64,000 nucleotides of DNA from Lytechinus pictus (taxonomy: Eukaryota). The stretch spans positions 18,664,001 through 18,728,000 of the forward strand of contig NC_087245.1 of the NCBI RefSeq assembly GCF_037042905.1, given 5' to 3'. This document shows positions 22,801 to 46,291 of the stretch, one piece after another; within the stretch, counting starts at the first letter, position 1; each line of letters opens with the position of its first letter. Position numbers and translations under genes: made by a program. The notes under the pieces are model-generated. The model was not told where the DNA came from, did no database searches, and worked only from the letters and a program-made list of their open reading frames with translations.

Positions 22801-25800
22801 GAAGTACTTCCGGGTCACTCCCTGGCAGCTTCAGTTGTTCTAGCTGGACTGCAGACAAATATTGACTGGGAAAAAATGACACAAACATAAGCCAGTTGCG
22901 ATAAACAGCCATAAAATTTACTTTTGGTAACATACAGAAAATATTAATTTTTTTAGCTTCAAACTGAAAGTAGATATCATGGTCTCAAGAATACAGGCCC
23001 ATGAGTTTAACTTCTCAAAAGTGAAGATATGAATAATCAATCCAAAGTGGCGTATCGTAAAGCTGTTCATAAGTTGTGTGTGACTTTACACATAACTGAT
23101 GACCTGTTCTACCTACCATGTGACATTTGTGGATAAACAAGCATATGAATGCAAAGTATATTATTTGTCAAAATATGATTGGTGTTGTCTGAAATGCACT
23201 CCAATTCTGATATAACAGGAAAAAAAATAAGGGTATCTTATTTAGCACAAAAACAGGTCACCAAGTGTGCATGATTTATGAACAGCTTCAAGAAATTTCA
23301 TTATTACAGACATTTCTTCTCAAGTGGCAATTTATCTACCTGTGTCACATAGTACAACACTGCTGCCTGTGAAATGGGGAAGGCTGAAACAGGTCAGTAT
23401 TTATCAAAAATATTTATGCAATTGTTCAAATTGCACACTCATGCAGCATTACATCGCCCATATATACAATTCCTCAATCAACACATTATGAAAGAAAGTG
23501 ATATCTATCTAAAACTCATAGGACAAATCGTCAGTGGTCATCCGAACCGTCGTATCACACATACGACGGTGCAAACCCATTTCAGAGAAAATCGACTTCA
23601 AAGTTTACTAAAATTTTCACACTTAGTTCTCCAGCCTTACAACATATTTATTGCTAGAAATATACATGGTTAGAAAGACCAAGACAATTGCTTGACAATG
23701 GTATCCTTATTTTTACACAAAACCAAGGATCAGAGAAAATATCGCAAAAGAGCTGCATGCTTGTAATTTCGGTTTGAGCGTTCCCTCGTACAAAAACACA
23801 ATATGGAATACAACAACCCTGACCGTGATTTCTATGCACGCGGTCAGTCAAAACGTTGTATTGCTTTTCACGTGCATAGTCAATGCAGTGCAGATGGCCA
23901 ATACAACAGTTTGACTGACCGCGAGCATTGAAATCGCGGTCGGTCAAAACGTAGTATCGCTCTGCTACTGTACACGTTTCCAATGGGATTTGCAATTTTT
24001 AAAAAAATTTATACAGCATCGCCGTGAAAATCCTCTCATAACTAAGAAACTAAAAACAAATTGCTGCCTAGAAATTTAGTTATGAATAGAATAGGACTTG
24101 TATTTCATTTTCTGCAAAAATGTTAAAATCAATTTTTTGACCAAAATTGACTGATATGACGCTTCGGATGAATGCCGACGAAATGCCCAAATCCCCAAAT
24201 GCACTCACTCTAATCTCTTATTCTTATCTTCAATTTCATCCACCACTCTCCTTAGCAGTTTTGCCTTCTCCTCACTGTATAGGGACGATGCCTCATGAGC
24301 TTCCATGGGAACAAGCTTCCTGAAGATATCCGGTCCTGCTACTGCTTCATCATACGGTTGGAATGTTAGAGCTTTAACCAATGATGCACCTATTTCATTA
24401 CAAAAATAATTAACATCCAAATCATTAACCACTTTAAGTTATTTGTCGCTAATTTGATCAACTGTTAATCTTCAAACTGGCAGCATTCATTTTCTTCACT
24501 AGAATTTCTTTCACAGGAAGCTTCTTACATTTCATCTATACATTCAGACTCGGAAGGAAAACACAATCATGTATTTATTGTCGCCGAGACAACAGGATTT
24601 TATTTCAAATTTGTGAAAAATCATTCATTTTATTATTATGACCCAAAAATCATCAATTGATGTCCAGCTTTCTGAATCTCTGCTGTCTATCTCAATATTG
24701 AACCTGTAATGTTAACATAATGACTATCCCGCTGGATACAGTGTTATGTTTTGTTTACTCTCCTGAACATATCATTTTTTATTAAGATACAAAGTTGTCA
24801 CCAATCTCAGGCAGGCTCAACAAGGGAAGAATACTTCTGTGGTACACAAAATCATTGTTTTTCACTTTCCTGAACATTACATATTTTTAGATATGTTTTA
24901 GCTTCGGCAACATTACATGACCAACTGTAGTGGTTATATGATATGAAAAAAAATTTGATGGCACTCAAGATCAAATTACCTTTGATTTCATTCAGGTTCT
25001 CACTGCCATGGTAAACCAATTCAATGTTTTTTTATTCTCCTGAACCCTTCATTTTCTTTTTATATAAAAGACTTTGTCTCTGGTAACATTATATTAACAG
25101 CCTTGTTGAGTATACTCAAGATCATATTACCTTGGATTTCAGGAAGGCTCTCAAAAGGAGGCACACATATTCTCAACATTGATGGGTAGAATCAAGATCA
25201 AATTACCTTTGATTTCAGGAAGGCTCTCAAAAGTAGGCACACTGTCATGATATACAAATTCATTGTCTTTCGTGGCAGACTGGAACTTTCCAATCACAAC
25301 ATCCTTGGCAAAGTTGAGGGCCTCCGTAATGCTTTCTGGTTGACCCTGATGAACAAAAACATTATGGTTAGTGATATTGTTTTGCATGAACCCTTGACAT
25401 GCAAAGAAAAGTGAGGTCGGTGTGTGTTAAAAGGATATTCATGTGGTAAGAAAGCTGAAAACAATAATTTCAAGCTTTCAGGTTCTCATAAGCAACCAGG
25501 GAGTCTAAGCATGTATGTCCTCTTTGATTTGGTACCCTGCTCACAGGATAAAAAGGCCACTGCTCACTAAGAAAATCCATTCCCACTCTTCCCTCTATTA
25601 TCCATCTTTGTAGTATTAAAGTAGAAGTATATCTTGGCCCGAATTCACAAAGGTGGTTTTGAAAACCCACTGTTGAGTCCATGGTCTATGCAGATTTCCT
25701 GTATACATTATGCTTATTTTACCGCATATATTAAAAAATTCCAATGCTGATGAGCGCTTTTGTCACAGTGCGCCAAATTGACGCCTGTTGCCATGGTTAT

Positions 25801-28800
25801 CCACTGTTCTAAATTAATGAGTCCTCTCTTCAAACAGTGGACTCATGAATAAAATAGCTTTCTAACCATGGTAACAGGTGTCAATTTGGTGCACTGTGAC
25901 AAAAGCTGCGCATCAGCAGTGGACATTTTTTATACACGTGCCTGATACGCGCTAAATCAAGCATTATTTATACAGAAAATCTGCATAAACCATAGATTCA
26001 CCTTTGTGAATGCGGGCCCTTAAGTTTTTAATTTTTATTTCCCATAAACAAGGATGACTGGATTGACCTTACACTCACAGTAGTCACCCTTTGCAATCCA
26101 TCCTTTTCCTTTCCCCAACTCAAAGAAATCTCCATGTCCATTCCAACCCTCCTCCTCTCCTCCTTCACTTGCTTTTCCCATGTCTTCACAGGTTGTCCCC
26201 TCCTTGGCTAAATCATTTATATTAATGAGTAGATTTTACTCTTCTTAACAATTTCTTTGCACGTGGCTGTAACATGTTAATCAGAATACATCCCATCCTT
26301 AGTCTCTCCCTTCTTCTCTTTTCCCACTACTCCGGATGAAAATTTAAATCTCAAAATAGAGTTACCTTGCTCATCTTGACAGCTTCATTGTGTTTGGTTT
26401 GTGCGTATGTCAGGTATGCAACCCTCTCCCCATACTTCTGCTGTTCTTCAGCCTGGTTACTCATGAACATCTAATAACAAACCAAATATGATCAGGGTTA
26501 CACATATAATCAGCGTAACCCAGCCATTCAATGTTAAGTTCAATAATTTGCTGGGAACAAAAATTTGTGTGAATCAGGTGCTCTAAATCCTTTTAATTTT
26601 GAAATTAGTACTTATTCATTACTCTCTATATGGTATCACTCTCTCATGAAATAGTATAGAGTGAATGAAATTTAATTTAAAAAAATTAAAAAAAATTCCA
26701 CATTCACTCATTCATAAAAAAAAATTATAATAGTGGGTAAATAATAAATATTGTGCAATGTTCTCTTACACAGTCAGAGCGCCACGCGTATGCTAATGAG
26801 CACGATCGCTGAAATTTATTCAGAATCCCATCCGCCCGAAAATCATCTAGCGGGACTCTCGTAGATCGCGAGATATCACGAGAGTCATGCAGGTCTCGTT
26901 CTAATGACGTCATACTCTTCACTGGAAAAGCCAAGATGGAAGAATGCAACCGTAAGTAAATCTTGAAATCTTTAGCTTTATTTTGATATGAAATATGTGG
27001 TAATCCAGAAAAAAATTGAACCTGAAATAATGCTTTAGATCTAGGCAATATTTTAGCCGGATCGGAGATCAAATTTTTCATTAGAATGTTGTTTTTTACG
27101 TCCTGACCCTCCTCAGAATTTTTGGCTTTCGTGAAGCCTCCGATGTTGTAGAATATATTTCAGTGATGAACATGTGTAAATATCTCTGGGACGCAAAATC
27201 TCCTTCGTACTCGTATTTTACGATGAAACTACCTCAAATTTTCCATTTTGTCAACTGCACTGACGCTGATTCTTCTTTTGTACTTGTTTATTTTATTGAG
27301 TGATGACGTCAGCCATGGTCTCGCGCGGAGTAACCAACTGGTGGGTCAGTCCCATTACCATTAGTGTATTTTTGAGTCTTGTTTAAAAAGCTTGGTGCCC
27401 AATTCTCTCACATTGATTGTGTGAGGGCCAAATCATTGCCATGCGAACTTGAAATAAAGATTAGATCTAGTTTGAAATTATTTTGTAATTATTCCATGAG
27501 GTTGCAATCTAATTTTGTGCCTTATATTCTGATGCATTTCATCCAAATCAGACTATTATTTGAGACTGAGATAGAGCTCGAGAGCTGTGACACTAGTGTC
27601 AGTGACATGACACTGTCAACAGTTGTCTAAAAAAAAGGGAATTGACAGATTGAGATTGACTGACTTCTTGACTAGCCATGAGGCTCCTTGAGAGTAAATA
27701 TCATTCATTAACGTGTGCTTACCCTCCTTGGAGCCAGGGATTGCATCCCATACATTTGCGTGTACCGCGAAAAAAAACCCAGAAATTTTACGCTCTCGAG
27801 ATTTCTACTTTCCATATAAATTATAAGAGAGGTAGATCTAGTCCTAAATCATGTGAATGGGATATACAACTTCATCTCTGACATTTTTACATTTAAACAA
27901 GAATTCATTAAAAAGACAGAAAACTTTCAACGATGTTCATGTCACCATCATGTTTTTTTTTTTTTTTTTGCCAAGGCTACAAAACGCCTATTGAGGAAAT
28001 GAAGTTGTATCCCATTTACATGATTTAGGTATAGATCTTTTAGAAGGAAAGTAGAAATCTTGGGGAGAGTATGCATTTTACTCTCTGGGTCAGGAGCCTC
28101 CTGGCTACAGGTATTCTCTCTAGTTGTCGGTACTAATAGATCTCTATTGTAATTGATTATTGAATTAAAGTTATTAAGTAAATTGAAAATGAATTATGGA
28201 AACCTCAATAATAAACCTTGGTTAACAAAGGTGTCATTATAGATTTTTTTTAGAATTCAATTTAATCGTAGAATCTGTTAGATCTAAGCTTGATCTACTT
28301 TCTTTGAAAATTTAAATTCAAGACTCGGGCAATATACTAATCAAGAAGTTAACGTCCATGGGAACTCATTCATTTACTCATATTTTGTGGACTTTGAATT
28401 TTGATGAGACAAAAAGACATTTTAGCCCAAGATTTATTCAAGAAAGTTTGCATTTTTCAGGTGACAATCTGACATAGACTCAGATTTGAATTTTATTGCA
28501 TTTTTAAAAACATGTATCATTACATGATTAATTGTGCAGATGGGTGAGGCCTGAGGGGCCCTGATATGGTGGGGGGGGGGGGGCTTTCATTATCATAACT
28601 GCACTTTTTGCTATAAATTTTATTACAAACAGCTAAAACTTACCATCCAATTATGATTTTTTGCATGATCCCAGGCTATGTTCTGCTCAGTCCTCCCCCT
28701 TCCCACTCCAAAAAAAAAAAAAAAGAAACATTCTGCAGCCTTTGGGTATCCACACAGACAATGTCATTGTACAGATATTTTTAAGAAGTGCCATACTGAT

Positions 28801-31800
28801 ACAGCAACGCTTTGATAATTGAATTGTCACACTGCTGATTTTATTTTCTGGGGGAGCAGCAAAAATATTTTTTGATGGAGATGTGTCCCTCAAACCCTGA
28901 AATGGGAGTTCAAGAGGGAAACATACATGAACATGTATTTGTTTTTAATATAGTTAGGAAATATGAGCAATATTTTGATAAACTAAAATATGAATCTATG
29001 CATTTTATTTATTGTAAATTACTGAGCCTGCAAATTCTTTTTGCTTTGGGCAAAAATATTACTTGGATGGGCGCTTCTATTGCTATTTCAATAGATTTGT
29101 TTGCTATTTTTTCCACCGTGTCCTTCTTCATTAAGTGCTGACAAATTTTTATATGTGAACATTGTAATTTTGCTCTGAGTAAATAAATGATAGGAAGTTA
29201 AATGTTATGTTATTACATATTGCAATTATTTTCTTTGTAATGACATTTAACTCTCTGTCCTTTTGTTTTATTGCTTTCCTAGTTTGGAATTTATTTTGTT
29301 GTAAAAGCAATCTTTTCTTTTTTTTTCTTTACAGATCACCTTCACATCTGGCTGGATGCCAAGTTCTTTTGATAGGAGACTCAATTGTGCGACACGCTGT
29401 TTTTAATGGACCCTTTTCTTCTGAAACTTTGTGCTTTCCAGGGGCTAATGTTACATCGTTAAGATCATCATTCGTCAAATCTTTCAGAATTACTTCGACT
29501 TTTCTACAAAGGCTGTTTTCATCCATATAGGAACAAACAATTTAGAACATAGTGTTTGGGAAAAGGATTCCAAAGCATTTCATAATTTGTATATTAGTGT
29601 TAGAGAGCAATTTCGGTGTGCAAAGATTATTAACTGTTTGGGATAAAGTACAGATTCCCATATACTATTATCCAGACATTGAATTATATGGCTTTGTTGT
29701 ATCCAGGGATGATGGGGAAGTACCGTACATGTAGCATGCCAGTGGGACACAGATGAAAGTATTGAAAAGATTAAATCAAATGTTTTATATCTCACAAGGG
29801 GTTGTTCTTGTGCCAAGAGCAAATGTCATAACCATTTATGTAAATGTAGAAAAGAGGGTAGATTTTGTGGGCCAGGTTGCCGCTGTAGACAGTGCCAAAA
29901 TCTTACTGCTGTAGAGAAACTGGCAAGTGATAGCGACTCCAGTGAAGAAGATTCTGATATTGATCATTTTGATTATGATTCTGATTTTGATGAAGTTCCT
30001 TGTGATAAAACAAATATCGAAGGTACCATTGAAATCGACATTGATGGTGATTTATCTCTGTTTGAAGATTTGCAGGAAGACTGTTCAGATTATGAGTAGG
30101 CATTCTCTGTGTCATGTTCTTGTAGCCCTTTAAAATCATTCATCAGTCATTTAATCAGTCTATTATATGCCAGTATTCATTGGCTGCTGTGAGGGTGAAG
30201 TTTGTTACATTGAATCAATTCATGATAGCTATTACTTTTATATTATGTACATGTTTTTTTTAATGGTTATAATTTTTGTTTAAAGAACATTTATAAGAAG
30301 GCATGACAGGCAATGTGGAAATGTTGGTGAGCATTTACACATGTTTTTTATGCATGTGATACCTTTTTATTTGTATATCATTAAGTGTCTGCAACATTAC
30401 ACTATTTCCACATTATGCATAACAGAAGAAGTTGAACTATTTTTTTTTTCACAAGTATGCACATTTTTCATATATTTAACGTACCTTGTTATGTTTATTC
30501 TTGCTTTTTACTGCAATACATATGAGTCAGTGTATGTATACGTTTCTTGCCAGTTCCATTGAGGTCTTGCAGGTCAATCATTTTGGTAGCTGAAATAATA
30601 GTTGTCGTAGTTGTATGAAACAAATGTGAAGTTTCTTACGACAATTGTGAGGCTTAAGCAGAATACATGATGGTTACATGTATTTTGTTAGATTGGCTAA
30701 TTATTTCATTAGCAATATATAGAGGTGCAGTACCGTACATGTATTTCCTCTTGAACTTTGACGCAGCTTTTTCAATATGTGTGTGATTTACAATATCCTA
30801 TAAAACAGTTGTGTATATTATTATTATTATTTTGCCGTTGTTGCTTTGCTTTTGCTACTTATGATTATGATTATGTAAATGTGTAACTTTTTTTGCTTAC
30901 ATACATGTATTGAACCTTTTGTACAAGTTGTCATGATGGTGAGCATTGAACTACCTTTGTTCCTACTTTTACATGTACATTATATATATTTTCATGATCA
31001 CCTCTTTATAAATTGTTTTTCCTTGTCATTTAGATAGTGCATTGTGGCAGTTTCTTGCAGGTCAATCATTTTGGCAACTCAGATAATAGTTTTTGTAGTT
31101 ACATGTAGGCCTATATGAAACAAATGATAAGTTTCTTACAGCAATTGTGAGGCTTAAGCTAAATACATGATGGTTACATGTATTTTGTTAGATTGGCTAA
31201 TTATTTCATTAGCAATATATAGAGGTGCAGTACATGTATTTCCTCTTGAACTTTGACGCAGCTTTTTCAATATGTTTGTGATTTACAATATCCTATAAAA
31301 CAGTTGTGTCTATTATTTTACCCTGCTGTTGCTGTTCCTACTTATGATTATGTAAATGTGTAAATTTTTTGGTTATGTAAATGTGTAAATTTTTTGTTTA
31401 TATGTTGAAGCACTTGTACAAGTTGTCATGATGGTGAGCATTGAACTACCCTTGTTCCTACTTTTACATGTACATTATGTATATTTTCATGATCACCTTT
31501 TTATAAATTGTTTTTTCCTTGCCATTTAGAGAGTGCATAGTGGCAGTTTTAACATCTCATACACATGTTAACAATGGGGACATTATTACAGTTGGTGATA
31601 CGTATATTGACCCCAGTAATTCCATATATTGTAATATGTATTACCTAGATATACATGTATGTAAACGTATGGCTGAATTATTTCTTTTATGAGGCAGTTT
31701 TGATGGCACTGACTTCTGTATACAAAGATTATTTCACTTGTTTCCTGTCATGACTACCAAAGTAATTTCACTGATGACGGGCTTTCCTAAACGATACATT

Positions 31801-34800
31801 CCTTGTTTATAAAATTGTTTTAACTCATATTTACCTCAACTACTGTCTGCTTGCCAAAGACATTCAGGGAGCATTAGATGTAAAACTGCCTTTATCTTTA
31901 TTAACATGTTTGATTGTAAAACAAAAACAGTATTCACTTATACTCTCTTCATGTACTTGCCTTGAATGATATTAGGTGCCAAAGTTTTTTGCTTGTATTT
32001 ATATGTTTTGTAAACATGAGTTTCAAGAGTTTGATGTTGGAAATAAACTCTTTTTTTCTTGTTAAAATTGATCAGATATTGAACATGCTTTCAATTTTTT
32101 TTCTTTAGGAATATCCATTTACTATGAGCTAGATTTTGAATTCATGCATTGTATTGCACTGGAGATCTGAATATGAGAATATAGAAGAATAAATGAAGAA
32201 AGAAATAGAAAAAAAATCAAGATTTAAAGAAAAAGAAGAGAATATGTGTATGAACTTAAGTTACAGTTACACAACTGTTTAAACACGTTTCTGTGCATGA
32301 CAAAAAGAAAAGATGTGTTCGATTAGAAAGTCGGCTGGATGTGTGAGGAAAATATTACATGTAATATCAAGAGAGAGAGAGACAGACAGAGCAACACTAA
32401 TAGAGAGGGAGAGAGATGGGTGTTTCCCACGGAGAAAGGTGTTTGAAAATGAATAAAAAAACACAGTAGTGGGACAAGATTTGTGAATATGAGGAATTGA
32501 AAATTGAGGAGGAAGACGAGATCTGTTGAACAAATGATATCCAAGTATCCCACTGCACGATGGAATGTAATTGTTCAGAGAAAAGGGTGGATAATGAATC
32601 GTGATAAATAGAAATATACATCGCACCCAGGTGTGGAACCAGGGGGGGGGGGACACGTGCCCCCCCCCCCTTGAGAGTATTGAGAGCAACTTGTCTATTT
32701 TTTTAAATGTAAACATACCGTAAATACACAAGTGTCCCCCCCTTAGAGTGGCAGCAAATATTTTAAATGGGATTATGTGGTTCCTTTACAAGTGAGCCCC
32801 CCCCCCCTTTTTTTGGGGGGGGGGTTGTTAATTTCAAATGTGGCAAAATGTCAGTCATTTTTGGAGGGAAAACTTTTGCTTGTCAATATTTCCTACGAAA
32901 TATTTGCCCCCTCCCCTTTTGGAAAATCCTGGATCTGGCCCTGATCACACCCCCCCCCCAAATAAATAAATAAATAAACAGAAATACTAGTGAATAAAAC
33001 AAAATCAACTAATGGGAGAAAGAAAATTGATAAAATGGATTGATAATGATTTAGAACAGTAAAACAAAACACATGAATTATGGAGGGTGTCTTTGCATTT
33101 TTTATGCTTTTCTAAACTTCCAAGCATGTTGACATTTATTAATTGTTCTATCCATTCTTGTTTGTTTCTGAAAACGGGATGTGTGCATGTATGTAATTCT
33201 TTTCAACAAGTCTTGGCAACAAAACCGGCCGGGGGGGGGGGGGGGCAGCATCAATAAGTTAACTAAGTACATACCGGTACATGTAATTCAGAAAACGCAG
33301 AATTGCATACATGGGACTGAGTTTATTGATAAAACACAAATACGACTCTACTCACTTAGAATGGCTATAATAATGAATGCAGAGATATAAGGAAATATCC
33401 CATAAAATTTCTTGCATTCTTGTCAGTCTTCTATATTGAAAAATCTATCAAAAACAATTTTACGTCTATAAACTTTGTATAAAAGAACAAATACTCTATG
33501 AAAGTAGACGACGTTGTTGTTCGGGGTTTCGCTTCGAAAGTCGATGTGTAGAAAGGTCATGACCTGCGATCACGCGTTGAATCCATGGAATGCGTTGACC
33601 AATCAGATTGCTCTATTTACGTAACTCGTTTGAAGCTCGTTTTGGACAGGCCCTCATAATGACTTGGCGGTATGTTTCCCTGGTTCCTGACTCTCCTCAT
33701 TAATGAAAAACCATGAATTATGTCTCATTTTAAAGAGTGATAATTCAGCTTTACAACTGTTATTAAATTTGAAGGACGCAAGAATTATGAAATGGTATTA
33801 TACGTCGTTAAAGCTGAATGATTTGAATTTTTCCGGGGGCAAAGTTCTAGGGCAGTTTACCTTACTAAGTTAATGAAATATGTCGATAATTATGGTATAT
33901 ATCGAATCCTTGATTCTTCCCCTTTCTATCGATATAATGTTTATGGTTTAAAACAGTAAATTAACCCGGTAAAACGCAGAGAAACTAGACCCTTGCGTTC
34001 CTCATTACGTATTCATGAACCGAGCGGTCACGAATACGAGCTGAATAAATACGTGCGAATTAGCTCGCGCGGCGGAGTGACTGTACACTGTAGTACTTGA
34101 AATAAGTGTATATTCATAAAAGAATAAGACAATTTTTTCTGAACACGTTTTCTCATGGCTAGGCAGTTTTGTGCTTATTTGAATTTGAGACTAAAATAAG
34201 GACTTTCTTTATATTCTGATAATTCTTTGAATTTACATTTTCAACCTGTTGAACAAGATTTCAAATCAGTACATGACATATTTACAATGTGTTCCAGGGC
34301 CCTGAAGTTGAAGGAAATACTATTTAATACCCTTTCAGGCAATATTGCCACTCCCAATAGATAGCACCACCAGGTGGTGATAGATGAGGTCACCTTTTAT
34401 TAAAACATCTGAATGCTCCAAGCTTACCTCGTGATCTATCATCACATGAATAAAAAACAATAACTTCTGCATGGACATGATACTTATTGCTGATACACTG
34501 GGCAGAGATTTGATTGAAATGCCTCACAATGTGCTACTATTTTCATTGTGACGTGTTATACATGTATATCGCAAGTCATTCATAATGTGCTACTGATAGC
34601 CTGTTGCTATCAATTGCAAGTGGTGATAACATGTGAAATGGCTGCAGGACTCACATAAGCAATGCTGGTGAAGTGATGAACCTTGATCTGCAGTGTCTTC
34701 TTCCACCATTTATTCCTCCTAGATCCCATCAGACTACTGATATTAGAATCATCAAGTCCCTTCAGTGCCTGCTTGTAATACTCCACAACCTGCATGCTGA

Positions 34801-37800
34801 TACGGGCCACCAAGGAACTCTTCCGGTTGTCCTGCATTGACTTCTCCAACAGGCACTCCTGGGCTTGACCCTGGGCAGCAGAATATTCAGATACAGGTGC
34901 CGACAGTAAATTAATGACCTATCTGTCAGATCAGCCCTAGTAAACTAAAACTTGGATCAATACTCATATGTTCTGCATGCAAAAGCTAAATTGAAATGAT
35001 TAGGAATGAAATCAGCTCCCATACAAAAATATTATCAATTCTATATTCAGGATGGAAGGATCAATTAAGAATATTTTAATGATTTTGCCCCCATAGTGCC
35101 ACGGTGAACTAAAATGGACTACAATTTCGACTAAGAATTAAGTGTGACTATGTTATGTGTCTGTACTTATGCGCATATGGTACTTAACATGTAATCTAGT
35201 AATCTAGTTAATGGCTAAGCATTTCACATGCTCTGAATATGATATTGGCCATATGATGCTGTATTACATACTGTATTACATTCTGTACACAACCCGGGGC
35301 CGTTTCATAAAGCTGTTCGTAAGTTAAGAGCGACTTTAAGAACGACTGGTGAACCTTTCTTACCTGCTAAACCATCGCCAATGGAGTATACCATTTACCA
35401 AAAGAAAGGATCACCAGTCGTTCTTAAATTCGCTCTTATCTTACGAACAGCTTTATGAAACACCCACCAGGACATTTAAATGTGTTTTGTAATCACTTAC
35501 GCCATGTGACTCAGCCCCTTGACTATAGCTTACTCACCAGCATTGTGTTGATGTACATGTTCATGAGCTCAAATGAGATATCAGGGCTCATGTCACACTG
35601 AAAGTTATCCTTGAGGTAGCTGAAAGCCCCAGCTGCACACTGGAAGTGGGTACATGCTACCTTCATCTCCTGTATGTCAAAGGTGAAATCAAAATCAATA
35701 ATAATCATATTATTATTCAAATTTACCACTCATATATTCTGCAAGCATAATAGAGCCTGGTTCAGTCTAGGTGAAAAAAATCATCCTTTTTCATATTGAT
35801 GAATGTGCATTTTACACATACAATTTCTAAAGATTGCTTGATGTCACATGGAAACTCATACCATCATGATCATTTTATTATGACATCATGGGGTTTTCTT
35901 AGAGTTTGGGGGGGGGGGTTTACAGAAATAATTTTGTCAAATAAATGTCACAGAATTTAATAATGGCCCATAGGTCTTGTAGCTAGCCAAAGAAAACTGT
36001 TCTCCTCAAGTTTTCAGTACTCAATCTGGAAAAAATAAAGGATCCATCAGGTTAGGGTTATCAATTGAAAAGAAGTTCATTATACCAATATCAGCTGGTT
36101 TAATGTGTAAATCTTTCAAATCAGACTCTTTTCCAAGATATTGACAAACAATAAATGGAAGTTTGAATATCTGGAAAACGCTAGTAATGAAATGACAGAG
36201 AATGCAAGGATGTACATCTAAATGGGGCCTGGCATCATTTAACAAAGTATCTGGATAGTTTTTCACTAGCAAATTCACTATTAGTCAATCAGATGAAAGC
36301 ATTTCAGCAGCTTTGAACAAATGTCAAGTAAAAAATCTCTGACAGGATGCTTCATGAAATGCTCCCTCCAGGTGCCTGTAACAGGAAACTTAGCAATTGA
36401 TCGTAACGTTGATTTGTTCACTTGATTGCACATTATGAACAATGTAATCAAGCACAAGATCAGCTCTATGATCAATCCCTAAGCTCTGTGTTACAAGGAA
36501 CTAACCTCTTCTGAAGCACGTGACTCAATAGCTCCCAAGATGGAATGTAGGGTTCCTAGGTTGAACAGGATGCATGACTGCTCAAATAGGATGTCTGTAT
36601 GTGTGTAGGGTTCCTCATCAAATGTATCAATCCTGTAATTAGTCAGAAATAAAGGCAGAATGACTTGTTACTATGCACCCTCACAGGCCTTACTTACTGC
36701 AAGATTAGTATTAACTTTGCAGAAGAGGTACGTACTGTAGCCGGTGAATGCACTCATGTTAAATTCAAATAAATGTATCAAAGAATTGCAATATAACCTA
36801 TTCATTTGTATACACAAGTTTATTTTATTTTATTAACTCAATCATCCTCCGGTGGTATAAGATATGGCATATATACAGTGGTGCTAAAAAGTTAGTGAAC
36901 CCCACCAGAAAATGAACATATTTAAAACCGTTCAAGTTCTGCCATGTTATAGATATTCAATTGTGAAGTCAGGTTATAACAAATTACATTCAATAAAGTT
37001 TGTTCCTCTGGGCTAACCAAACATTGAAGTGCTGTTGTCTACTGTACATTCAACACTCAGCATTAACTTTCTACCACCACTGTATACTGGTGATGGTGTC
37101 CTACTCCCTCTCCCTTCCTCTCGCTCTATCTCCCTCTCCACTTCCATCTTATGAAATCTCAGGTAATCCATGGTGTTAAACAGACTATTAGTCATGGAGC
37201 AAAGGATTATAAATCATGTGCTCCCTTTATACAACCACACAGTATGCATGTAGATGTACATACAATTCAACATTACACATGTACTGATATTATTGAAGGT
37301 TTTATTTATACATATTCCCACCATGATCATGTCTGTAGGGCTTTGAGGAAACGTAATTTGCTTTACCTTTACCACAGTACGCATAATCAGTTTATCTACG
37401 GATAACAGAGCACCAATGAAATCTTTTCAAACATCTAGGTGAAAAAGTATATCAATTCAAATACGCTGGCAAAACACAAGCTTGCGCAAATTTTATATTG
37501 AAATGACACATTTATAGCTAGATGTAATGACATTTCATTTGTTATTGCAGCACTGGCAAGTCAACTAGGATGTCTAACCATAAATGAAAATTCTAATCAC
37601 AGACATGAAATATGGTATACATACATATTATAAAGATAATTTTCTTATTATTCTTGGGAGGAGATAAAAATCAGTATATCTGCTCCAGGAAAAAAAAATC
37701 ACTGGGGCTCGGGACAATTATGCCCCTGAAATTCCCTAAAGAGCACTGGAAATCAAAAAAAGAGCCTCGAAAACTCCCCATTCACTGCTATGTTAAGGCT

Positions 37801-40800: not shown

Positions 40801-43800
40801 TCGCTCAATTCGCTCAATTGCGGCGGTCAAAACTTTGACAAAAACACATGTTCGCAGTGAAAAGTAATGCATTTAGGAGCAACGTATTATCAAGCACAGT
40901 GAATAGCAATGGGTACATATTTCCGTGGATGGGTACGGTGAATGCTACTACGCTACGCTCGCTATAGCGCTAGATATATCGTCGGGATCGAGGGTGGCTC
41001 GATCGGGCAGGCCGGCCTCGCACTGACGTATTTCTGCTGCCGCGCAGCTCGCAGGTATTCTTTTTTCATTTAATGCGCTGCTAAGCTGATAAACCTTTTA
41101 ATCACGCCAATTACTGTGGATAAATGCTTCCAACTTTTCAGCTAAGCTTTACACTCGTAACTTTAGGCTAGACCCCTTTTTATTTTATGTTTACATGTCG
41201 ATGTGGGTGCGTGCATGTCGACATGTCGGAAACATTGAAAATCCTTTGTATGTCGACATCAATGTCAATATGAGGCCTATCGACAACAGCACTAGTATTT
41301 TGTCAGAGACCCAACTTTTACAGCATATGTAATAACAATCATTTTGCATTGTGTTCTGATGGTCCTTAATTATTAATCTACATGGCTTCATACTCACAGT
41401 TCGCAGTTGGTCTAGCTGTCTGATTTCTTCATTATATTTTGAAACATCTTCCATATAATGCTGGGATATGTGCTAAAGAAAAGGAAACAAAAATAGGTAT
41501 CAGGGCAAAGGTGCTGGCTTGCAATGGGCAGAACTCAAAGTTTTACTTGCACTACAAAATTTCATGGTGTAATGCCTTGAATTGTGAAGCAAGACAAAAA
41601 ATATTATTATTAAAGTTATTTAGTTTCTGTCAACAGTAGACCAGTGATAGTGTCATTGTGTTCTGTGGAGAAGATGACATTATATCATCATGATCATTGG
41701 CATCATTATCCTCATCATCATCACCACCACCATCGTCCTCCTCCTCCTCCTCATCACTACCATTATCATTACTACCAATACCATTATTTACAATTATTAC
41801 AAATATTATCATCATCAACCACAATGTAATCACTATACAGGGTGTTTCTTTAAAAAAAAAAAGGTAACAGCAGTTCAAAGGTCAGCTATATAAAAAATAC
41901 ATGATTTAATCTTGTTATTTTGATTCTACGTGACTAAATAAGTCGATCAACTTTTATTTAACACCTCGCTTGCGTCACATTATCACGGGATGCAGAGTAA
42001 TGGTCCTTCGAAGGCGAAGGGTACAAAACCTACTTTTTCCAAATTTTGGTTTTAATGTACAAGCACAAAACCAACTTTGTTGCAAGGTTTTGGTTTCATC
42101 AGAGTTTTCCTTCAAATTTCAGTGAAATGCTATACCCTCTGTTAACTTTTTGTGAGTGACTGGCATTTACATATTGTCTTCCTAGCTTCCATCTCTTTTG
42201 AACATGTCATTCATCACGTAGTGCATAGGTAGGACGTATAATGTCAATGACAATTTAGAGTGCTAATTAACGGTAGTTGAATTGAGTAAGAACAAAATTA
42301 GCACTCTAAACTCGTCATTGACATTAGAACGTCCTACCTATGCACCACGTTGGTCAGGAATCTTGTACTAGCACAAACAGCTACGCATGCGCACCATTTC
42401 TCTCTGTATCTACCTGCGTACGTGCGTCATCACAAAGCGAGTCAAAGGTCATGTCATTTTTTTAAGCGTGGGTACATTTAGTGAGCCAACTGGTAAGAAA
42501 TCTCTCATTTTTCATATTTAAACTAAGAGATTTTTCACATCTTCATACACATTAGGCGTATGAAGGTTTATAGATAAATATAATTAATCAAATGTAGACC
42601 TCTAACTCCAAGCAATTTCTAGTTCTAGACTAAAGATGGATTTCTTAGGGAAATCCATCCGTGTTTACATGTCTCGCTTAGGCATGTACGCGCAGCATGT
42701 CAAGGCTCCATGATGTAAAAGTATATGTAAAAATATTTTGTAAATATCATCATGGAGTCCTCAAGGCTAGATTTGTCAACCCTTCCGAATGTGCTCTTGA
42801 AATAATAAGCATGTCATCAATTAGACCAAAAGCTTCGGTCTCTGTTATGTTGGATGTTCTGCTGAACTCCGTTGGCTCCACTCACCAAATACAGAGACCA
42901 AAGTTCTAGCTCGATCTGTATAACCCAATCTCACTAGATGCGATTCCGCTGCGATCGTAAAAAATCGACAAAGCGTGGTATATCGTAGCTTGATCGTGGC
43001 TTGATCTTTTCAATCTCCTCCGTCGTACCTTGATCTTTTCTGAAGCGGCAAGGATCGCCACCATCTTCCTGGTCGCCACAAAATTTTGAACATGTTCAAA
43101 ACTTACGTAGCAAGAGCGCGGAGGTGCTAAAGCGCATCACAATCGAGTCATGAGCGTATTACAAACGCATAAAAAGCTCCAATGCATAAAGCGTAGTAGA
43201 AGCGCATTAAAAGCGGCACCGATCGCCCGTTCCCAAGAACATACTGCCACGCTGCTTCCGTTTACAAGGCGACTGCCTTGCGCTCGACACGCTTCACACC
43301 ACTTCCACCGCGACGCTTTCTTCTTTGGGTGACATGTGGCGCACGTTCTCAGCCCACTACAGGCATTCACGTTGCGCTTTTGCTGGGCAGCGATTGCGCA
43401 ACGACCGTCCGTGCTGCTATAAAGCGCCGTGACAATGGTGGCGGATTATCACATTTGCAACAGATTACAAGGCGACACCACAACGTTTTCAAACATGCCT
43501 CCCAGAAAAAGGAACAAAAAAGGGAAAGCTGCCCAAGCTACCCCTGTTAAGCCGGTGGTCCAAGAGGTTATGGTGGTGGTAGAGGAGGAGGAGGAAAATC
43601 TTACTGCTGAGCCAGCTGGAAAGAGAAAAAAGACGCTCACATGTCTTGATGATGAACAGGAGGAAAGTATGGTGGGATGGCTTATTGACAATCTGGTCAT
43701 CTACAACAAGAAGATGCGAGATTACAAGGACACATCGATGACAGAGAGACTGTGGACGGCCAAGGTGCTGAAATTGGCAATGAAAAGCATGAGCTTCAGA

Positions 43801-46291
43801 CTTGGTACAAGAGTGTTCGGACCAGATACGGAAGGCTAAAAAAGAAAGCCTGCATGAGGTACATTCCACCTCCTCTGGTTTTCTTGTGCAATCTGACCCC
43901 ATTCTCCTGGTGTTGTTGGACAGGTAATCAACTCATCCTTGATTGATTGACTATTGCCTGGCACACTTCTGGGATGATGCTGCAGATGGTGTTCCTAGCC
44001 ACTCTGAAATTATACTGCAGCATTGGATACTTGTCTCCTGAAACCAGATGCCTGATGGTGATGGCCAGCTTCATACCTGGTTCCAGAGCTCTCCTCATGT
44101 GAGTGTCCTGCTTCTGAATTCTGGGGCCCACTCAAAATTTCATCGTACATCTCTGGTTCCATCCTCAAGAAATTGAAAAATGATGCAGTGTCCTCCATTC
44201 TTAGCGTTGTCATCAACCTGTTGTAATGGCCGAATTCAAGTCTTCTTTCTGCAGACAGCCAGGATCAGACCCAGTATCGTTTTTGGCCTCCTCCTCCTCC
44301 TCCTCCTTCTCCTGTCCTCGTATTCAACTTCTAACTGATGTTGTTGTAGAATGCTAAGGTGTATAAGTCCAACCAAATTCTGGACATCCATCTTGGTCGG
44401 AGGTTGGCAATCGACTGAAGAATGTCTCATGTGCCGCGATTAATATGCCAATTGCTTGAAATCCTTTCAAGAGCCCATCATGAACGTAACACAATCGCTC
44501 CATTCGTAGCACAACTGTAGCGAGGTCCTAATTAGCGTATGAGCCTCGTTGTACAGTCGCTTTGATCGCAGAAGCAGCGCATCACATCTGCCTCGAATCG
44601 TGGCAAGAGAGTGGCAGCGTCGTACTATCAGCGTATTACCATCGCCTTCAGCGCAGGTCGGTCGCAGTGAAGTTGCGGTGCAATCGCCTCGCAGGCTAAA
44701 AATAGAATTCGAGGAAGATTCTGCTACGCTTTGCGGGATTTACACAGATCGCCATGGTCTGTGTGAACACCTTCCTAGTGAGATGGGGGTAGTACAGGGA
44801 CTCAATGGCCATATATTTATGTATTAAGTTCGGATAAAACAGGGAAGTGCAGTTGCACGACAGCCGAATTAAGTCACTGTTTTATCCCCTTTTAAGTTTA
44901 TTTTCCCCGTTTTGGAGCATTTCAGGCCAAAACGGAATAAAATTAACAATCTTTATTTTGGTACAGTTCTTTTTATACATTTATGTTACGATTTTGTTAC
45001 GATTCATAACAAAAATGGCCAATCGAGACGGGGGTAGAAGGAGAGAACTTTTCGTTTTTTTGAAGTTCCAGTCTGTGCCTCGATGTCAGGAAACTGCCAC
45101 TTGTTAGACCTTCATCCATATAATCGTGGTAAGTGCATAATTTCTGTTTTCACAATTCATTTGGAGAAATATTTAGACCATAAATCACGCTAGTCCTGTG
45201 AGTATGGTCAAATACACGGTAAGCCCCTGGGCTCCGGCCCGCACAGCGGGCCGGAGCTCCCTGACCCCGGGGGGGGGGGGGGGGGGCACTCAGTATATAA
45301 TGCATAGTGGGTATGTGCCGCGGAGGGGACCCCCATTTTACACTCAAATTTCCGTTCCAAGGCATAGCATTTTTGTCTTATTGAGAAAAAGAACAAAGAA
45401 AGCCGCTCCAAAGCATAGCATTTTCTTCTTATCGAGAAAAAAAGAAGAAAGAAATCCGCTCCAAAGCTTCGCATATTTTCCGTTACGCCTTTCCGGCCGT
45501 ATTGATCTGCTACAACGAGCCGCAGTTTTGGTGAAAAGCGGCCGCAGAGCGCCGTCCGACCATCGCATCTGCGCTAGCGCATCCGGCGCCCGTGCCGCCG
45601 GGCTATAGCTGCATGCACTTATGCCCGTTCCATAGGGATGAATACGCAATCACACGCAGGCGACCCGTTCCAAGGACCCCCGTTTTCACAAACAATTGTC
45701 GTTCCAAATCCCGTTCCAAGGACCCTCCTTTTTACAATAAGCCCACTCCAAGGCCCCCGTTTTTTGTCTCGCCCGCGGCACATACCCACTACTTTTTTGG
45801 TCGAGTGCCCCCCCCCCCCCCCCCCCCCCCGGTCCCTGACCCTGGGTTATGTTCGTGCATGAATGATGAAGGTCCTTTTTTTTATACTTTATTAAATATG
45901 CACTCAAGTCTCAACTTTAACTACTCTAAGTCTCGCGTTAGGCCCAACTTTAGTTACAATAACTTACATGCAGTTAGGCACACGACAATCAGCATTGAAT
46001 AGGAGAACTCTCAGTCTCAATCACTCATTCTCAGAGACAGAGTCGGACTCATCACACTCCTCATCACTCAGAGTCAGACTCAGTGCAGTGGACACTCCCA
46101 CTCACTCGCCAAACATAAATTTCCTGATACAATAATGTGAAGTTATTAATTATTCAGTGAATGTTTCCTTGCATCACATCTTCACCAACTCTAAACATAA
46201 TTACCTGTTTAATTTCATGTCCGAATTCTACTCTTTCAGCACTTTCTTTTAGCTCAATACTGAGCATTAACATCCGAGGAATAGCCTCCAT
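7006..46291 (-). CDS. PTPN23: Tyrosine-protein phosphatase non-receptor type 23 (HD-PTP); 23 coding exons, 7092 nt, 2363 aa
   Basis: N-terminus MEAIPRMLMLSIELKES, Bro1 motifs ([51 protein letters not shown]), V domain, long Pro/Gln-rich exon, PTP domain (SIAIARCYSVKNRH, DYINAS, FIATQAP, FTAWPE, VHCSAG) and C-terminal DPFSGLDPMWSM all parallel human PTPN23; all 22 introns GT-AG with matching phases. Confidence 0.97.
8200..8260 (-). CDS. PTPN23: PTPN23 exon 22 (PTP domain end)
   Basis: EQLKFSYDAILCYAHHALAK(R); ag/gtgag. Confidence 0.92.
8811..8949 (-). CDS. PTPN23: PTPN23 exon 21 (P-loop end, Q-loop)
   Basis: AGIDRTGVFCLVYTAAREINEGHG...LRLQRKWMVTEK; ag/gtaac. Confidence 0.94.
9030..9300 (+). 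mobile_element. tRNA-derived SINE
   Basis: A box TGGCTCAGTTGG, B box GTTCAAACC, imperfect cloverleaf followed by about 200 bp of non-tRNA body; 3' boundary approximate. Confidence 0.8.
10007..10759. mobile_element. TA-flanked non-autonomous DNA transposon (Tc1/mariner-like MITE)
   Basis: Ends TACTGTAAAAG...TTTTCGCGG and CCGCGAAAA...GTTTACAGTA; repeated subterminal (T)TCGCG motifs. Confidence 0.8.
10770..10874 (-). CDS. PTPN23: PTPN23 exon 20 (PTP domain, catalytic Cys)
   Basis: (F)GVPSSPGVLLQFIDEVQSYHSQQRKTQIPIVVHC(S); ag/gtgag. Confidence 0.94.
11342..11532 (-). CDS. PTPN23: PTPN23 exon 19 (PTP domain, WPE loop)
   Basis: GSTSFIGYWP...HLQFTAWPE; ag/gtaag. Confidence 0.94.
11680..11780. repeat. 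(CAT)n degenerate microsatellite
   Basis: tcatcatcatcatc runs. Confidence 0.85.
11917..12119 (-). CDS. PTPN23: PTPN23 exon 18 (PTP domain)
   Basis: DHNRVCLRGTRDDYINASFV...FIATQAP...DFWLMVYEQ; ag/gtgag. Confidence 0.95.
12362..12910 (-). mobile_element. Helentron-associated non-autonomous element (HINE/DINE-1-like), truncated copy
   Basis: Same terminus as 39085-39763 (aacaagtggaacgcctct...gtctcgcctgcattacgc) and the same TGACCTTTGAC tandem core; other end missing. Confidence 0.75.
13079..13175 (-). CDS. PTPN23: PTPN23 exon 17 (PTP domain start)
   Basis: DLTDYQDRETRQFSIAIARCYSVKNRHPDIMP(Y); ag/gtaag. Confidence 0.94.
13229..13441. mobile_element. Short G/C-run MITE (hAT-like termini)
   Basis: CATGGGCGGAATTCC...GAGATTTCTGCCCCTG imperfect TIRs with internal GGGGGACGCGTCCCCC palindrome. 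Confidence 0.6.
14056..17429 (-). CDS. PTPN23: PTPN23 exon 16 (3374-nt Pro/Gln-rich region)
   Basis: Uninterrupted frame from PQRPAAPKP to FVEEVERLDKYVEGLNRKMLSGPTVIERLWK|gttag. Confidence 0.93.
18288..18475 (-). CDS. PTPN23: PTPN23 exon 15 (V domain end)
   Basis: REEKIGELISSYTVYDDLIEKSNKGIGFYKKLE; ag/gtaag. Confidence 0.92.
19061..19212 (-). CDS. PTPN23: PTPN23 exon 14 (V domain)
   Basis: EFFQNELKKHETLITYLEQNLSAQDNILKAMTEANAAYAERRK; ag/gtaag. Confidence 0.92.
19330..19610 (-). mobile_element. Highly degraded SINE-like fragment
   Basis: Weak resemblance in motif order to the SINE at 47621-47912; boundaries uncertain. Confidence 0.3.
19644..19804 (-). CDS. PTPN23: PTPN23 exon 13 (V domain)
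   Basis: EEDDEAEKKMQKLVAKVDEMKTQRQTLEQQLRDNIRDDDVT; ag/gtatt. Confidence 0.92.
20950..21151 (-). CDS. PTPN23: PTPN23 exon 12 (V domain)
   Basis: KEFGTKSAKSLGEMKKDL...ASQSNAELHKAMQTHMENIKLL; ag/gtaag. Confidence 0.9.
22044..22135 (-). CDS. PTPN23: PTPN23 exon 11 (V domain)
   Basis: LSGVVMDVDSSLKEIEQLLEEEEKQEAEFQ; ag/gtaaa. Confidence 0.92.
22723..22865 (-). CDS. PTPN23: PTPN23 exon 10 (V domain)
   Basis: QYLSAVQLEQL...LLEVCAALSVKTEPIKTLVTSMQ; ag/gtact. Confidence 0.92.
23047..23295. mobile_element. Degraded PIF/Harbinger-type MITE, same family as 35297-35467
   Basis: taaagctgttcataagtt...tgactttacacataactgatgacc / ggtcacc...ttatgaacagcttc arms. Confidence 0.55.
23529..24180. mobile_element. 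Non-autonomous DNA transposon, Sola1-like
   Basis: TIRs CGTCAGTGGTCATCCGAACCGTCGTATCA / CGTCGGCATTCATCCGAAGCGTCATATCA; 4-bp TSD AAAT (23525-23528, 24181-24184) fits the AWWT target of Sola1. Confidence 0.75.
24209..24389 (-). CDS. PTPN23: PTPN23 exon 9 (Bro1 end, V domain start)
   Basis: ASLVKALTF...[30 protein letters not shown]; ag/gtgag. Confidence 0.95.
25207..25345 (-). CDS. PTPN23: PTPN23 exon 8 (Bro1)
   Basis: GQPESITEALNFAKDVVIGKFQSATKDNEFVYHDSVP...; ag/gtaat. Confidence 0.94.
25636..26018. mobile_element. PIF/Harbinger-type palindromic MITE
   Basis: TIRs GGCCCGAATTCACAAAGGTG / CACCTTTGTGAATGCGGGCC; 3-bp TSD CTT; nearly full-length foldback. Confidence 0.85.
26366..26470 (-). CDS. 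PTPN23: PTPN23 exon 7 (Bro1)
   Basis: MFMSNQAEEQQKYGERVAYLTYAQTKHNEAVKMSK; ag/gtaac. Confidence 0.94.
29335..29632 (+). pseudogene. SGNH/GDSL hydrolase (esterase)-like fragment, frameshifted and 3'-truncated
   Basis: Strong acceptor (tttttctttacag); VLLIGDSIVR (block I), CFPGA (block II), then after a frameshift VFIHIGTNNL (block III); DxxH block absent. Confidence 0.75.
29633..30099 (+). pseudogene. C-terminal remnant of a transposon protein with CXC/Cys-rich zinc finger and acidic tail
   Basis: VWDK..YPDIELYGF.. then (frameshift) VACQWDTDESIEKIKSNVLYLTRGCSCAKSKCHNHLCKCRKEGRFCGPGCRCRQCQN + D/E-rich tail, stop at 30099. Confidence 0.75.
30565..31549. repeat. Tandem duplication, two units of about 490 bp
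   Basis: Units start tcttgcaggtcaatcattttgg at 30565 and 31053 and share long identical blocks. Confidence 0.9.
32628..32943. mobile_element. G/C-run MITE nested in the Academ-like element
   Basis: CAGGTGTGGAACCAGGGG...GGAAAATCCTGGATCTGGCCCTG; same right end type as 49407-49593. Confidence 0.6.
34655..34870 (-). CDS. PTPN23: PTPN23 exon 6 (Bro1)
   Basis: [25 protein letters not shown]...HFTSIAY; ag/gtgag. Confidence 0.95.
35297..35467. mobile_element. PIF/Harbinger-type palindromic MITE
   Basis: gtttcataaagctgttcgtaag...aagaacgactggtga / tcaccagtcgttcttaa...cttacgaacagctttatgaaac. Confidence 0.85.
35538..35669 (-). CDS. PTPN23: PTPN23 exon 5 (Bro1)
   Basis: [23 protein letters not shown]...YINTML; ag/gtgag. 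Confidence 0.95.
36371..36501. mobile_element. Degraded PIF/Harbinger-type MITE abutting the exon 4 donor
   Basis: ggtgcctgtaacaggaaacttagcaattgatc / gatcaatccctaagctctgtgttacaaggaac. Confidence 0.55.
36506..36632 (-). CDS. PTPN23: PTPN23 exon 4 (Bro1)
   Basis: IDTFDEEPYTHTDILFEQSCILFNLGTLHSILGAIESRASEE; ag/gttag. Confidence 0.93.
36876..37082. mobile_element. Tc1-type MITE
   Basis: TIRs CAGTGGTGCTAAAAAGTTAGTG / CAGTGGTGGTAGAAAGTTAATG, TA on both sides. Confidence 0.75.
38312..38424 (-). CDS. PTPN23: PTPN23 exon 3 (Bro1)
   Basis: NACNVTRDFNGISTLKKYYGQLHLLSSRFPSDAFTFS(W); ag/gtaag. Confidence 0.93.
39085..39763 (-). mobile_element. Helentron-associated non-autonomous element (HINE/DINE-1-like), complete
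   Basis: On the - strand: T-run, subTIR GTCTCGCCTGCA, short internal IR, GGC/GTC microsatellite, tandem cores of about 140-190 bp with GGTCAAAGGTCA, 3' subTIR TGCAGGCGAGAC, small hairpin, CTTGTTTTTT. Confidence 0.8.
39805..39969. mobile_element. G/C-run MITE (hAT-like termini)
   Basis: TIRs CAGGGGCCGCGGAAGCGG / CCGTTCTGCGGCCCCTG. Confidence 0.75.
40266..41294. mobile_element. Non-autonomous hAT transposon
   Basis: Perfect 14-bp TIR TAGTGCTGTTGTCG; perfect 8-bp TSD GTATTTTG; subterminal GTCGACATGTCG arrays. Confidence 0.9.
41398..41472 (-). CDS. PTPN23: PTPN23 exon 2 (Bro1)
   Basis: HISQHYMEDVSKYNEEIRQLDQLRT; ag/gtgag. Confidence 0.93.
41684..41820. repeat. Mixed CAT/CAC/CCT trinucleotide low-complexity tract
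   Basis: Direct inspection. Confidence 0.85.
42216..42350. repeat. Near-perfect hairpin (arms of about 54 bp, loop of about 27 bp), probable mini-MITE
   Basis: acgtagtgcataggtaggacgt..taatgtcaatgac..tttagagtgctaatt and its reverse complement. Confidence 0.85.
43495..43850 (+). pseudogene. Harbinger Myb/SANT-like (MADF) DNA-binding protein, frameshifted and truncated
   Basis: LDDEQEESMVGWLIDNLVIYNKKMRDYKDTSMTERLW / ELQTWYKSVRTRYGRLKKK. Confidence 0.8.
43851..44391 (-). pseudogene. Harbinger (HARBI1-like) transposase N-terminal remnant
   Basis: RRRRRR..WV..WL, FFNFLRMEPEMYDEIL, IQKQDTHMRRALEPGMKLAITIRHLVSG, FRVARNTICSIIPEVCQAI, RWNVPHA; several frameshifts; ends just before the first catalytic Asp. 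Confidence 0.85.
44995..45265 (+). mobile_element. One arm of the foldback family also found at 56240-56768
   Basis: Closely matches 56495-56768; ends in GC hairpin GCTCCGGCCCGC-ACA-GCGGGCCGGAGC. Confidence 0.8.
45267..45832. mobile_element. Non-autonomous DNA transposon with poly-G/poly-C TIRs
   Basis: CCGG(G)nCACTC..TAGTGGGTATGTGCCGCGG / CCGCGGCACATACCCACTA..GAGTG(C)nGG; 8-9 bp TSD TCCCTGAC(C). Confidence 0.85.
46205..46291 (-). CDS. PTPN23: PTPN23 exon 1 (start codon)
   Basis: aaacATG; MEAIPRMLMLSIELKESAERVEFGHEIKQ|gtaa. Confidence 0.93.

Follow-up and report, generated by a model that had tools for sequence, protein, structure and literature searches.

Elements of the AcademX group of DNA transposons encode a protein with a DDE-type core, an XPG/FEN1-type nuclease and a terminal Cys finger, and Academ-type elements have YAG termini. 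The target-site duplications (TSDs) of AcademX are given as 3-4 bp in part of PMC10045372. SGNH esterases, a recurrent and unexplained cargo of retroelements, are described in sections of PMC3905857 as part of the proteins encoded by the first open reading frame (ORF1p) of CR1/L2, RTEX and Penelope-like elements; in the same sections the ORF1 esterase of ZfL2-1 binds liposomes, and binding to acidic membranes is proposed. Passages of PMC3905857 and PMC5408684 propose that retroelement esterases help RNA-protein particles to assemble or move at membranes. Parts of PMC5408684 and PMC6431247 describe a GDSL ORF3 in long terminal repeat (LTR) retrotransposons of bdelloids and in Terminons, and part of PMC4021074 describes texim SGNH genes carried by fish Helitrons. 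Here we report on a 7313-bp element at 26771..34083 of a 64,000-nucleotide stretch of Lytechinus pictus DNA (contig NC_087245.1, 18,664,001 to 18,728,000; this whole stretch is called the window, and all positions are counted in it). The element very probably derives, by internal deletion, from an AcademX-type DNA transposon of echinoderms with two genes, one for an SGNH esterase beside that for the transposase, and would be non-autonomous; this degree of confidence covers the architecture and leaves the role of the esterase apart.

The flanks of the element read TACA/CAGTCA...TGACTG/TACA, with the TSD at 26767..26770 on the left and at 34084..34087 on the right, and the CAG..CTG termini and 4-bp TACA duplication of the original prediction were confirmed at 26771 and 34083. 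The left terminal inverted repeat (TIR; 26771..26823, plus strand) was imperfect and approximately 53 bp long, with a CAGTCA outer block and a ATTTATTCAG inner block at its positions 44-53. The right TIR (34041..34083, minus strand) was approximately 43 bp long, with the ATTTATTCAG inner block at positions 34-43. The inner block was found once per strand in the whole window, and it lay 10 bp deeper at the left end than at the right, which is about one helical turn. The inverted-repeat alignment of the terminal 60 bp had a score of 36, equalled by 0 of 2000 shuffles. The TIRs had been predicted to be long; this was rejected, since the terminal alignment ended at approximately 53 and 43 bp and no further arm was found within approximately 600 bp of the ends.

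The left end of the element holds the first coding exon of an esterase gene; this exon, 174 bp in from the terminus, was absent from the original prediction. The 3' end of this exon (26936..26951, plus strand) contains the esterase ATG at 26944 (MQP) and is followed by a donor at 26952; an upstream, out-of-frame ATG at 26936 opens a frame of 17 amino acids (aa) after splicing. In sequencing run X1 a GT..AG splice joint connected 26951 with 29335 at a depth of 45.6. The related esterases P0003 of L. pictus and P0004 of L. variegatus (RefSeq) start with MQP and MQS, and the same three residues result from splicing ATG 26944 to 29335. Because the joint and these N-termini both match the spliced ATG, the esterase gene is placed as starting within the end of the element. 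The spliced transcript begins in a CpG-rich left end (26771..27270, plus strand), probably a promoter (TGACGTCA at 26905-26912), where the CpG observed/expected ratio was 1.39 and 1.14 compared to 0.34 and 0 in two flank bins.

The phase-2 intron of the esterase gene (26952..29334, plus strand; 2383 bp) contains nested high-copy repeats near 27743-28065 and 28570-28670. Exon 2 (29335..29631, plus strand) follows an acceptor at 29334 and encodes blocks I-III of the SGNH esterase, its N-terminal half, to residue 102; the predicted acceptor and the GDS/PG/GTNN blocks were all present. The fragment is identical to P0003 at 98 of 101 residues and to P0004 at 95 of 101. It retains the S, G and N blocks and has lost the catalytic D/H block, as homology ends at 29631, before D and H. 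Near 29487 the loss of one nucleotide breaks up the esterase piece, and after splicing the frame opened at ATG 26944 ends at 67 aa. The window copy therefore codes for a dead 67-aa fragment only.

Esterase homology ends at 29631 and transposase homology begins at 29633, which bears out the large internal deletion predicted near 29632. Compared to P0003 and the transposase P0168, at least approximately 5.5 kb of coding sequence was lost at this junction (29631..29632). One X1 contig begins exactly at 29632, and in two X9 contigs the alignment breaks off at 29631, leaving 3 and 17 letters unaligned. The segment beyond the junction (29632..30099, plus strand) is an AcademX-type transposase C-terminus, consisting of the end of the 5'-nuclease region (just the last approximately 30 aa), a CXC (TCR) finger, an acidic tail and a stop. 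Its Cys-rich frame (29713-30099) has the YGF..WD..CXC finger and acidic tail and matched Pfam TCR with an expectation value (E) of 3.4e-7, and the best match of the tail was P0168 (72% identity over 58 aa). In the window copy the tail is interrupted at 29720 by a 5-nt insertion, which is absent in X1 and in most of the X9 depth. The esterase exon had been described as running straight into the finger. The two are adjacent in the DNA, but they stand in separate frames owing to the 29487 frameshift, the out-of-frame junction and the 29720 insertion. An esterase-finger fusion protein of the window copy was rejected: the frameshift closes the reading frame at 67 aa, and the junction does not continue the esterase frame before it.

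The transposase core is wholly deleted in the window copy, and its nature was sought in relatives that share the tail. A search with the Cys-rich frame led to a 1730-aa Diadema protein with DUF6589, which we take to be the Academ transposase core. A search with the relative P0006 returned 36 proteins, 1063-2206 aa in length; those with a named source belong to echinoderms and an annelid. Related transposases of 1,700-2,100 aa have a layout of DUF6589, 5'-nuclease and CXC. Among 25 aligned relatives, DUF6589 was found in all 25, TCR in 22 and a helicase family in none. The model of P0181 matched the nuclease folds of XRN1 (E 4.7e-5), then XRN2, EXO1, FEN1 and Rad2. In a PDB sequence search with the transposases the LIN54 CXC was the one match, and the nuclease was not detected by sequence. 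The relatives carry DUF6589 with invariant acidic motifs, and DDE enzymes were absent from the top 50 fold matches. The element thus fits AcademX, as judged from sequence, by its 4-bp TSD and by a tail akin to those of DUF6589/nuclease/CXC transposases. The TACA/TACA duplication falls in the 3- to 4-bp range, the TIRs have CAGTCA ends, the C-terminal Cys-rich finger is found both in the window and in 22 of 25 relatives, the nuclease fold is seen in the model of the relative P0181, and no helicase family was found in the 25 relatives. The Academ-type call, tentative when first made, is strengthened accordingly. OTU-protease matches were also seen in 6 of the 25 related transposases (best E 8e-5), and 3 were flagged among the 36 search matches; several OTU-matching transposases have a 200-300-aa insert in the N-terminal half. 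The OTU-related set comprises P0179, P0180, P0182, P0185, P0189, P0192, P0193, P0194 and P0200.

A profile search with the esterase found 731 proteins, of which 150 were listed. Classification of 151 proteins gave 44 with an N-terminal SGNH domain and a conserved basic tail, 49 with an ORF1-like layout, and 58 fragments or others. In a quick tree of 130 of these 151 rows (21 with cores under 120 aa were dropped), midpoint-rooted and supported by the Shimodaira-Hasegawa-like approximate likelihood ratio test (SH-aLRT) only, with no bootstrap or one-clade test, a clade of 54 (SH-aLRT 99) contained all 34 tail-bearing rows and none of the 49 ORF1-like rows. The named members of this clade are from two Lytechinus species, Patiria and Branchiostoma. 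In 43 aligned family members the catalytic residues were S in 32 of 32, G in 37 of 37, N in 42 of 42, D in 41 of 43 and H in 43 of 43, and clustering at 50% identity gave more than 30 clusters over which catalytic residues and tail were kept. Residues 11-180 of P0003 were modelled in an SGNH fold at a predicted local distance difference test (pLDDT) score above 90, and the model found 176 matches in the PDB with E no higher than 0.001, the listed ones all SGNH-type and the best 4C1B. P0003 has 8 residues N-terminal of the domain and 351 C-terminal, and its basic tail has 39 K+R compared to 7 D+E in 150 aa. Three near-identical proteins of the esterase clade (P0090, P0115 and P0055, one of them named from Branchiostoma belcheri) have a SAM-like C-terminal domain in place of the basic tail and are possibly domesticated.

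Esterase and transposase were found together in several relatives. At L. variegatus LOC121405715, isoform X3 is the nearest intact esterase, P0004, and isoform X1 is P0196, a 1063-aa DUF6589 transposase; the two have no protein similarity (best E 0.19). The longest contig was 24,657 bp for both esterase P0017 and transposase P0006, and 20,595 bp for both esterase P0013 and transposase P0168. These pairs account for 2 of the 5 ENA esterases with a contig size on record, the remaining 3 being on contigs under 1.6 kb, and the probability of both matches arising by chance is approximately 4e-6 or less. The pairing recurs in P0004, P0013 and P0017, which are mutually 33-41% identical. P0042 consists of an esterase (residues 10-189) and a transposase tail (212-364; 60% identity to P0006, E 4e-59) joined at a breakpoint other than that of the window, and the C-terminal end of P0063 is a 24-aa piece of transposase core (E 6e-5). 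Both belong to a subclade different from that of the window's gene, and P0042 adjoins a Patiria protein. In DNA run X9 (another organism), rows of equal depth (34.3) connect the left end with the last part of the esterase intron. An esterase inside the transposase polypeptide was rejected for full-length proteins, as the esterase-family profile matched P0042 only among 41 transposase-side proteins. The original prediction had proposed a parent DNA transposon that encodes an esterase. LOC121405715, coding for both proteins, supports such a parent, and co-occurrence of SGNH and Academ genes elsewhere is indicated by this common RefSeq locus, the two contig pairs of equal size and the P0042 fusion, with TIRs there unseen. 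The 'uncharacterized' sea urchin and sea star genes of this kind, with many paralogs per genome, are probable transposon genes.

Evidence on transcription came mainly from run X1, which behaves as RNA. Across 29451-32360 its depth was 41-108, and two intron bins had a depth of 0. The X1 contig at 29352-29661 had no differences from the window and carries the same frameshift. Another X1 contig, matching 33232-34084, had 1 difference in 853 positions and 29 unaligned letters past 34084, which suggests a near-identical copy elsewhere. Because of these unaligned letters, the spliced X1 transcript may come from a locus other than that of the window. In X9 the depth was 128.8 in 33816-34106 and 0 in 34107-34397; the left end was present from approximately 26834, and no other flank was shown. 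No empty site was seen. There was almost no X9 depth on the immediate flanks or in the host exon bin 34689-34950, which filtering of the record makes uninformative on such a site. Run X17 gave short low-depth pieces only and was not used. The deleted copy seems to give rise to a spliced transcript, which would run antisense to the host gene in whose intron it sits.

Several observations weigh against the two-gene reading. No intact element was read end to end, and four scans of metagenome, viral and prokaryotic genome contigs found no relative. The contig pairs are joined by equal contig size, with gene order, strand and TIRs there unseen. Just 1 of 12 named esterase-family loci recurs among the transposase matches, and the transposases tied to an esterase number 3 (2 of the 36 matches and the query P0006); others may stand alone. 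P0196 is itself truncated and lacks nuclease motifs, and P0042 and P0063, which are predictions of unseen origin, could have arisen as gene-model joins. On the transcript side, X1 has no RNA label on record, its junction contig extends 30 letters past the junction, one below the bridging rule, and RNA run X21 (approximately 6% read) had no depth at 28869-30032 and no splice joint.

Under the two-gene reading, the parent would be at least approximately 13 kb long and would carry on one strand the left TIR with its promoter, a spliced SGNH esterase gene, the transposase and the right TIR. The parent esterase would have its active-site domain first and then the conserved, very basic tail, and the transposase would be approximately 1,750 aa long, with a DDE-type DUF6589 core, a FEN1/XPG-type nuclease and a CXC finger. 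Both genes would be expressed from the left-end promoter, through alternative splicing or a two-gene transcript. A single deletion could have taken the catalytic half of the esterase and all of the transposase except the last approximately 150 aa, and the shortened copy would then have been mobilised by transposase supplied in trans, leaving the 4-bp duplication. The esterase would be of common stock with LINE (long interspersed nuclear element) ORF1 esterases and would have been kept active alongside the transposase across sea urchins and sea stars.

For the role of the esterase we tentatively favour membrane targeting, because of the analogy with liposome binding by the ZfL2-1 esterase, and consider it a possible rather than a probable answer: the enzyme may bind acidic membranes while its basic tail binds element RNA or DNA, and the transcript or the transposition complex would in this way reach a membrane compartment or the germ line. 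A broader version, which we consider unlikely, is that an old echinoderm-wide and perhaps deuterostome-wide cut-and-paste lineage has taken up a membrane-binding, ORF1-like esterase with a tail that binds nucleic acid, by means of which its transcript or excised DNA is packaged for passage over membranes, whether out of the soma into the germ line or from one animal to another. If true, the retrotransposon esterase would be a general transport module of mobile elements rather than a component of reverse-transcription particles. A DDE-type DNA transposon has no reverse-transcription particle, and since a conserved and apparently active esterase is kept there, the role of the enzyme appears separable from reverse transcription.

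With the same architecture, the esterase could instead act against silencing, stripping host proteins or chromatin of acetyl or fatty-acyl groups while the tail steers it to nucleic acid. The conserved catalytic residues and a tail resembling a nuclear localization signal agree with this, as do the weak OTU-protease matches, by which the lineage would collect modifying enzymes, and deacetylation and depalmitoylation are among the options in sections of PMC3905857; but the same sections report the ZfL2-1 esterase as inactive in a histone deacetylation assay and as binding liposomes, and we hold a counter-silencing role to be somewhat unlikely. Quite unlikely, in our estimate, is an esterase that is a passenger, of benefit to the host or to itself and unneeded for transposition. 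Most fish Helitrons are without the texim esterase according to part of PMC4021074, and most Academ-type transposases found here are untied to an esterase, but retention of catalytic residues and tail over the clusters noted above is hard to explain without element-level selection.

Two further readings concern the architecture itself. A host esterase gene may have been gained by an Academ element that had none, or two adjacent elements whose ends are alike may have fused, the pairing then being specific to this family. The 11 of 12 named esterase-family loci unmatched to a transposase, the extra domains of the Branchiostoma member P0090, which may be a host gene, and the unseen intact element would all agree with such a capture. 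Its recurrence in esterases that are only 33-41% identical and in the distant subclade of P0042 and P0063, together with a first esterase exon so close to the terminus, make this reading improbable. The remaining possibility, raised in the original prediction as grounds for refutation, is the insertion of a CR1/L2 LINE into an Academ copy, with an ORF1 esterase fragment left behind; the closest solved structure (4C1B) is indeed the ZfL2-1 ORF1 esterase and 49 of the 151 classified proteins have the ORF1-like layout, but the gene contains an intron and begins with a first exon of its own in the left end, the N-terminal domain with basic tail reverses the ORF1-like layout, the clade of 54 has no ORF1-like row, intact relatives have a common locus with a transposase and no reverse transcriptase remnant was found in the element, leaving this account largely refuted and with a very slight probability. 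Because of its separate clade, conserved catalytic residues, SGNH fold and nearest structure in ZfL2-1, the esterase is, on sequence and model, a relative of LINE esterases and separate from an inserted LINE fragment.

The element lies within an 8184-bp intron (26471..34654, minus strand) of a gene with BRO1, V-domain and proline-rich regions (HD-PTP/ALIX-like), identified by Pfam BRO1 and ALIX_LYPXL_bnd on the flanking exons. It occupies approximately 89% of this intron (34654 to approximately 26471, minus strand), the share originally predicted, between two BRO1 exons, and appears to be transcribed antisense to the host gene. Four exon candidates upstream of the intron were located. The host gene extends over 7006-41500 on the minus strand, with BRO1, the V-domain and a 3.5-kb Pro/Gln-rich exon.

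Within the element, the transcribed 3' region (30100..33244, plus strand) is AT-rich and contains a tandem duplication of 500 bp (30565-31549, 85%) besides a nested repeat of high copy number at approximately 32640-32945, and the right subterminal region (33271..34083) is CpG-rich (observed/expected 1.0-1.5). The short repeats nested here (32640-32945) and in the esterase intron reached summed X9 depths of up to 19,525 and 9,339, and the one at 27743-28065 has inverted arms. An identical 5-nt insertion precedes a TACATGTA motif at 29720 and 30730, both absent in run X1; TACATGTA has 22 occurrences in the window compared to approximately 2 expected, making it a hot spot of recurrent mutation or assembly error. 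The other long frames of the element (32279-32785 and 26725-27159, minus; 28839-29141, plus) had no Pfam match. Outside it are two palindromic repeats resembling miniature inverted-repeat transposable elements (25636-26018 and 35302-35461), an apparently intact LINE ORF2 at 58073-61585 (minus strand; a 1170-aa open frame with reverse transcriptase and RNase H) and a GC-rich block at 43163-44300, whose frames had no Pfam match. In this block, 43423-43839 (plus) is what we take to be a Myb/SANT-like frame, and 44077-44248 (minus) presumably resembles the start of a Harbinger transposase.

No paper was found that pairs Academ with SGNH or esterase, in a literature search that excluded Repbase Reports and Kojima 2020 and missed plurals. 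The esterase-carrying lineage may be a new form of the known AcademX kind, and a prior Repbase record is possible. As far as parts of the sources cited above describe them, the GDSL ORF3 genes of bdelloid LTR retrotransposons and Terminons are likewise an independent capture of an apparently active SGNH/GDSL accessory gene; there, in contrast, the carriers are retroelements and the gene lies downstream as ORF3. The texim genes, similarly known from part of their source, are also intron-containing SGNH genes upstream of the mobility gene of a DNA element, a likeness drawn by description rather than by comparison of texim sequences, whereas Helitrons are rolling-circle elements and the present family is cut-and-paste. 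Texim-like genes of sea urchin are also described in PMC4021074, and the present family may be related to texim or include these genes. The ORF1p esterases of CR1/L2 (ZfL2-1), RTEX and Penelope-like elements have the same SGNH fold and S/G/N/D/H set and are the best sequence and structure match; in the source sections they too lie upstream of the main enzyme gene of the element. The present carrier differs from these in being a DNA transposon whose esterase gene has an intron, encodes an N-terminal domain with a conserved basic tail and falls in a separate clade. With AcademX the window element has in common the 4-bp TSD and the TIRs, and the related transposases have in common with it a presumed DDE-type core, a nuclease fold of FEN1/XPG type and a Cys finger at the end. 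The window element departs from AcademX in its short bipartite TIRs, offset by 10 bp, and in the loss of the whole transposase core, and the family as a whole differs in having an extra, spliced SGNH esterase gene upstream of the transposase.

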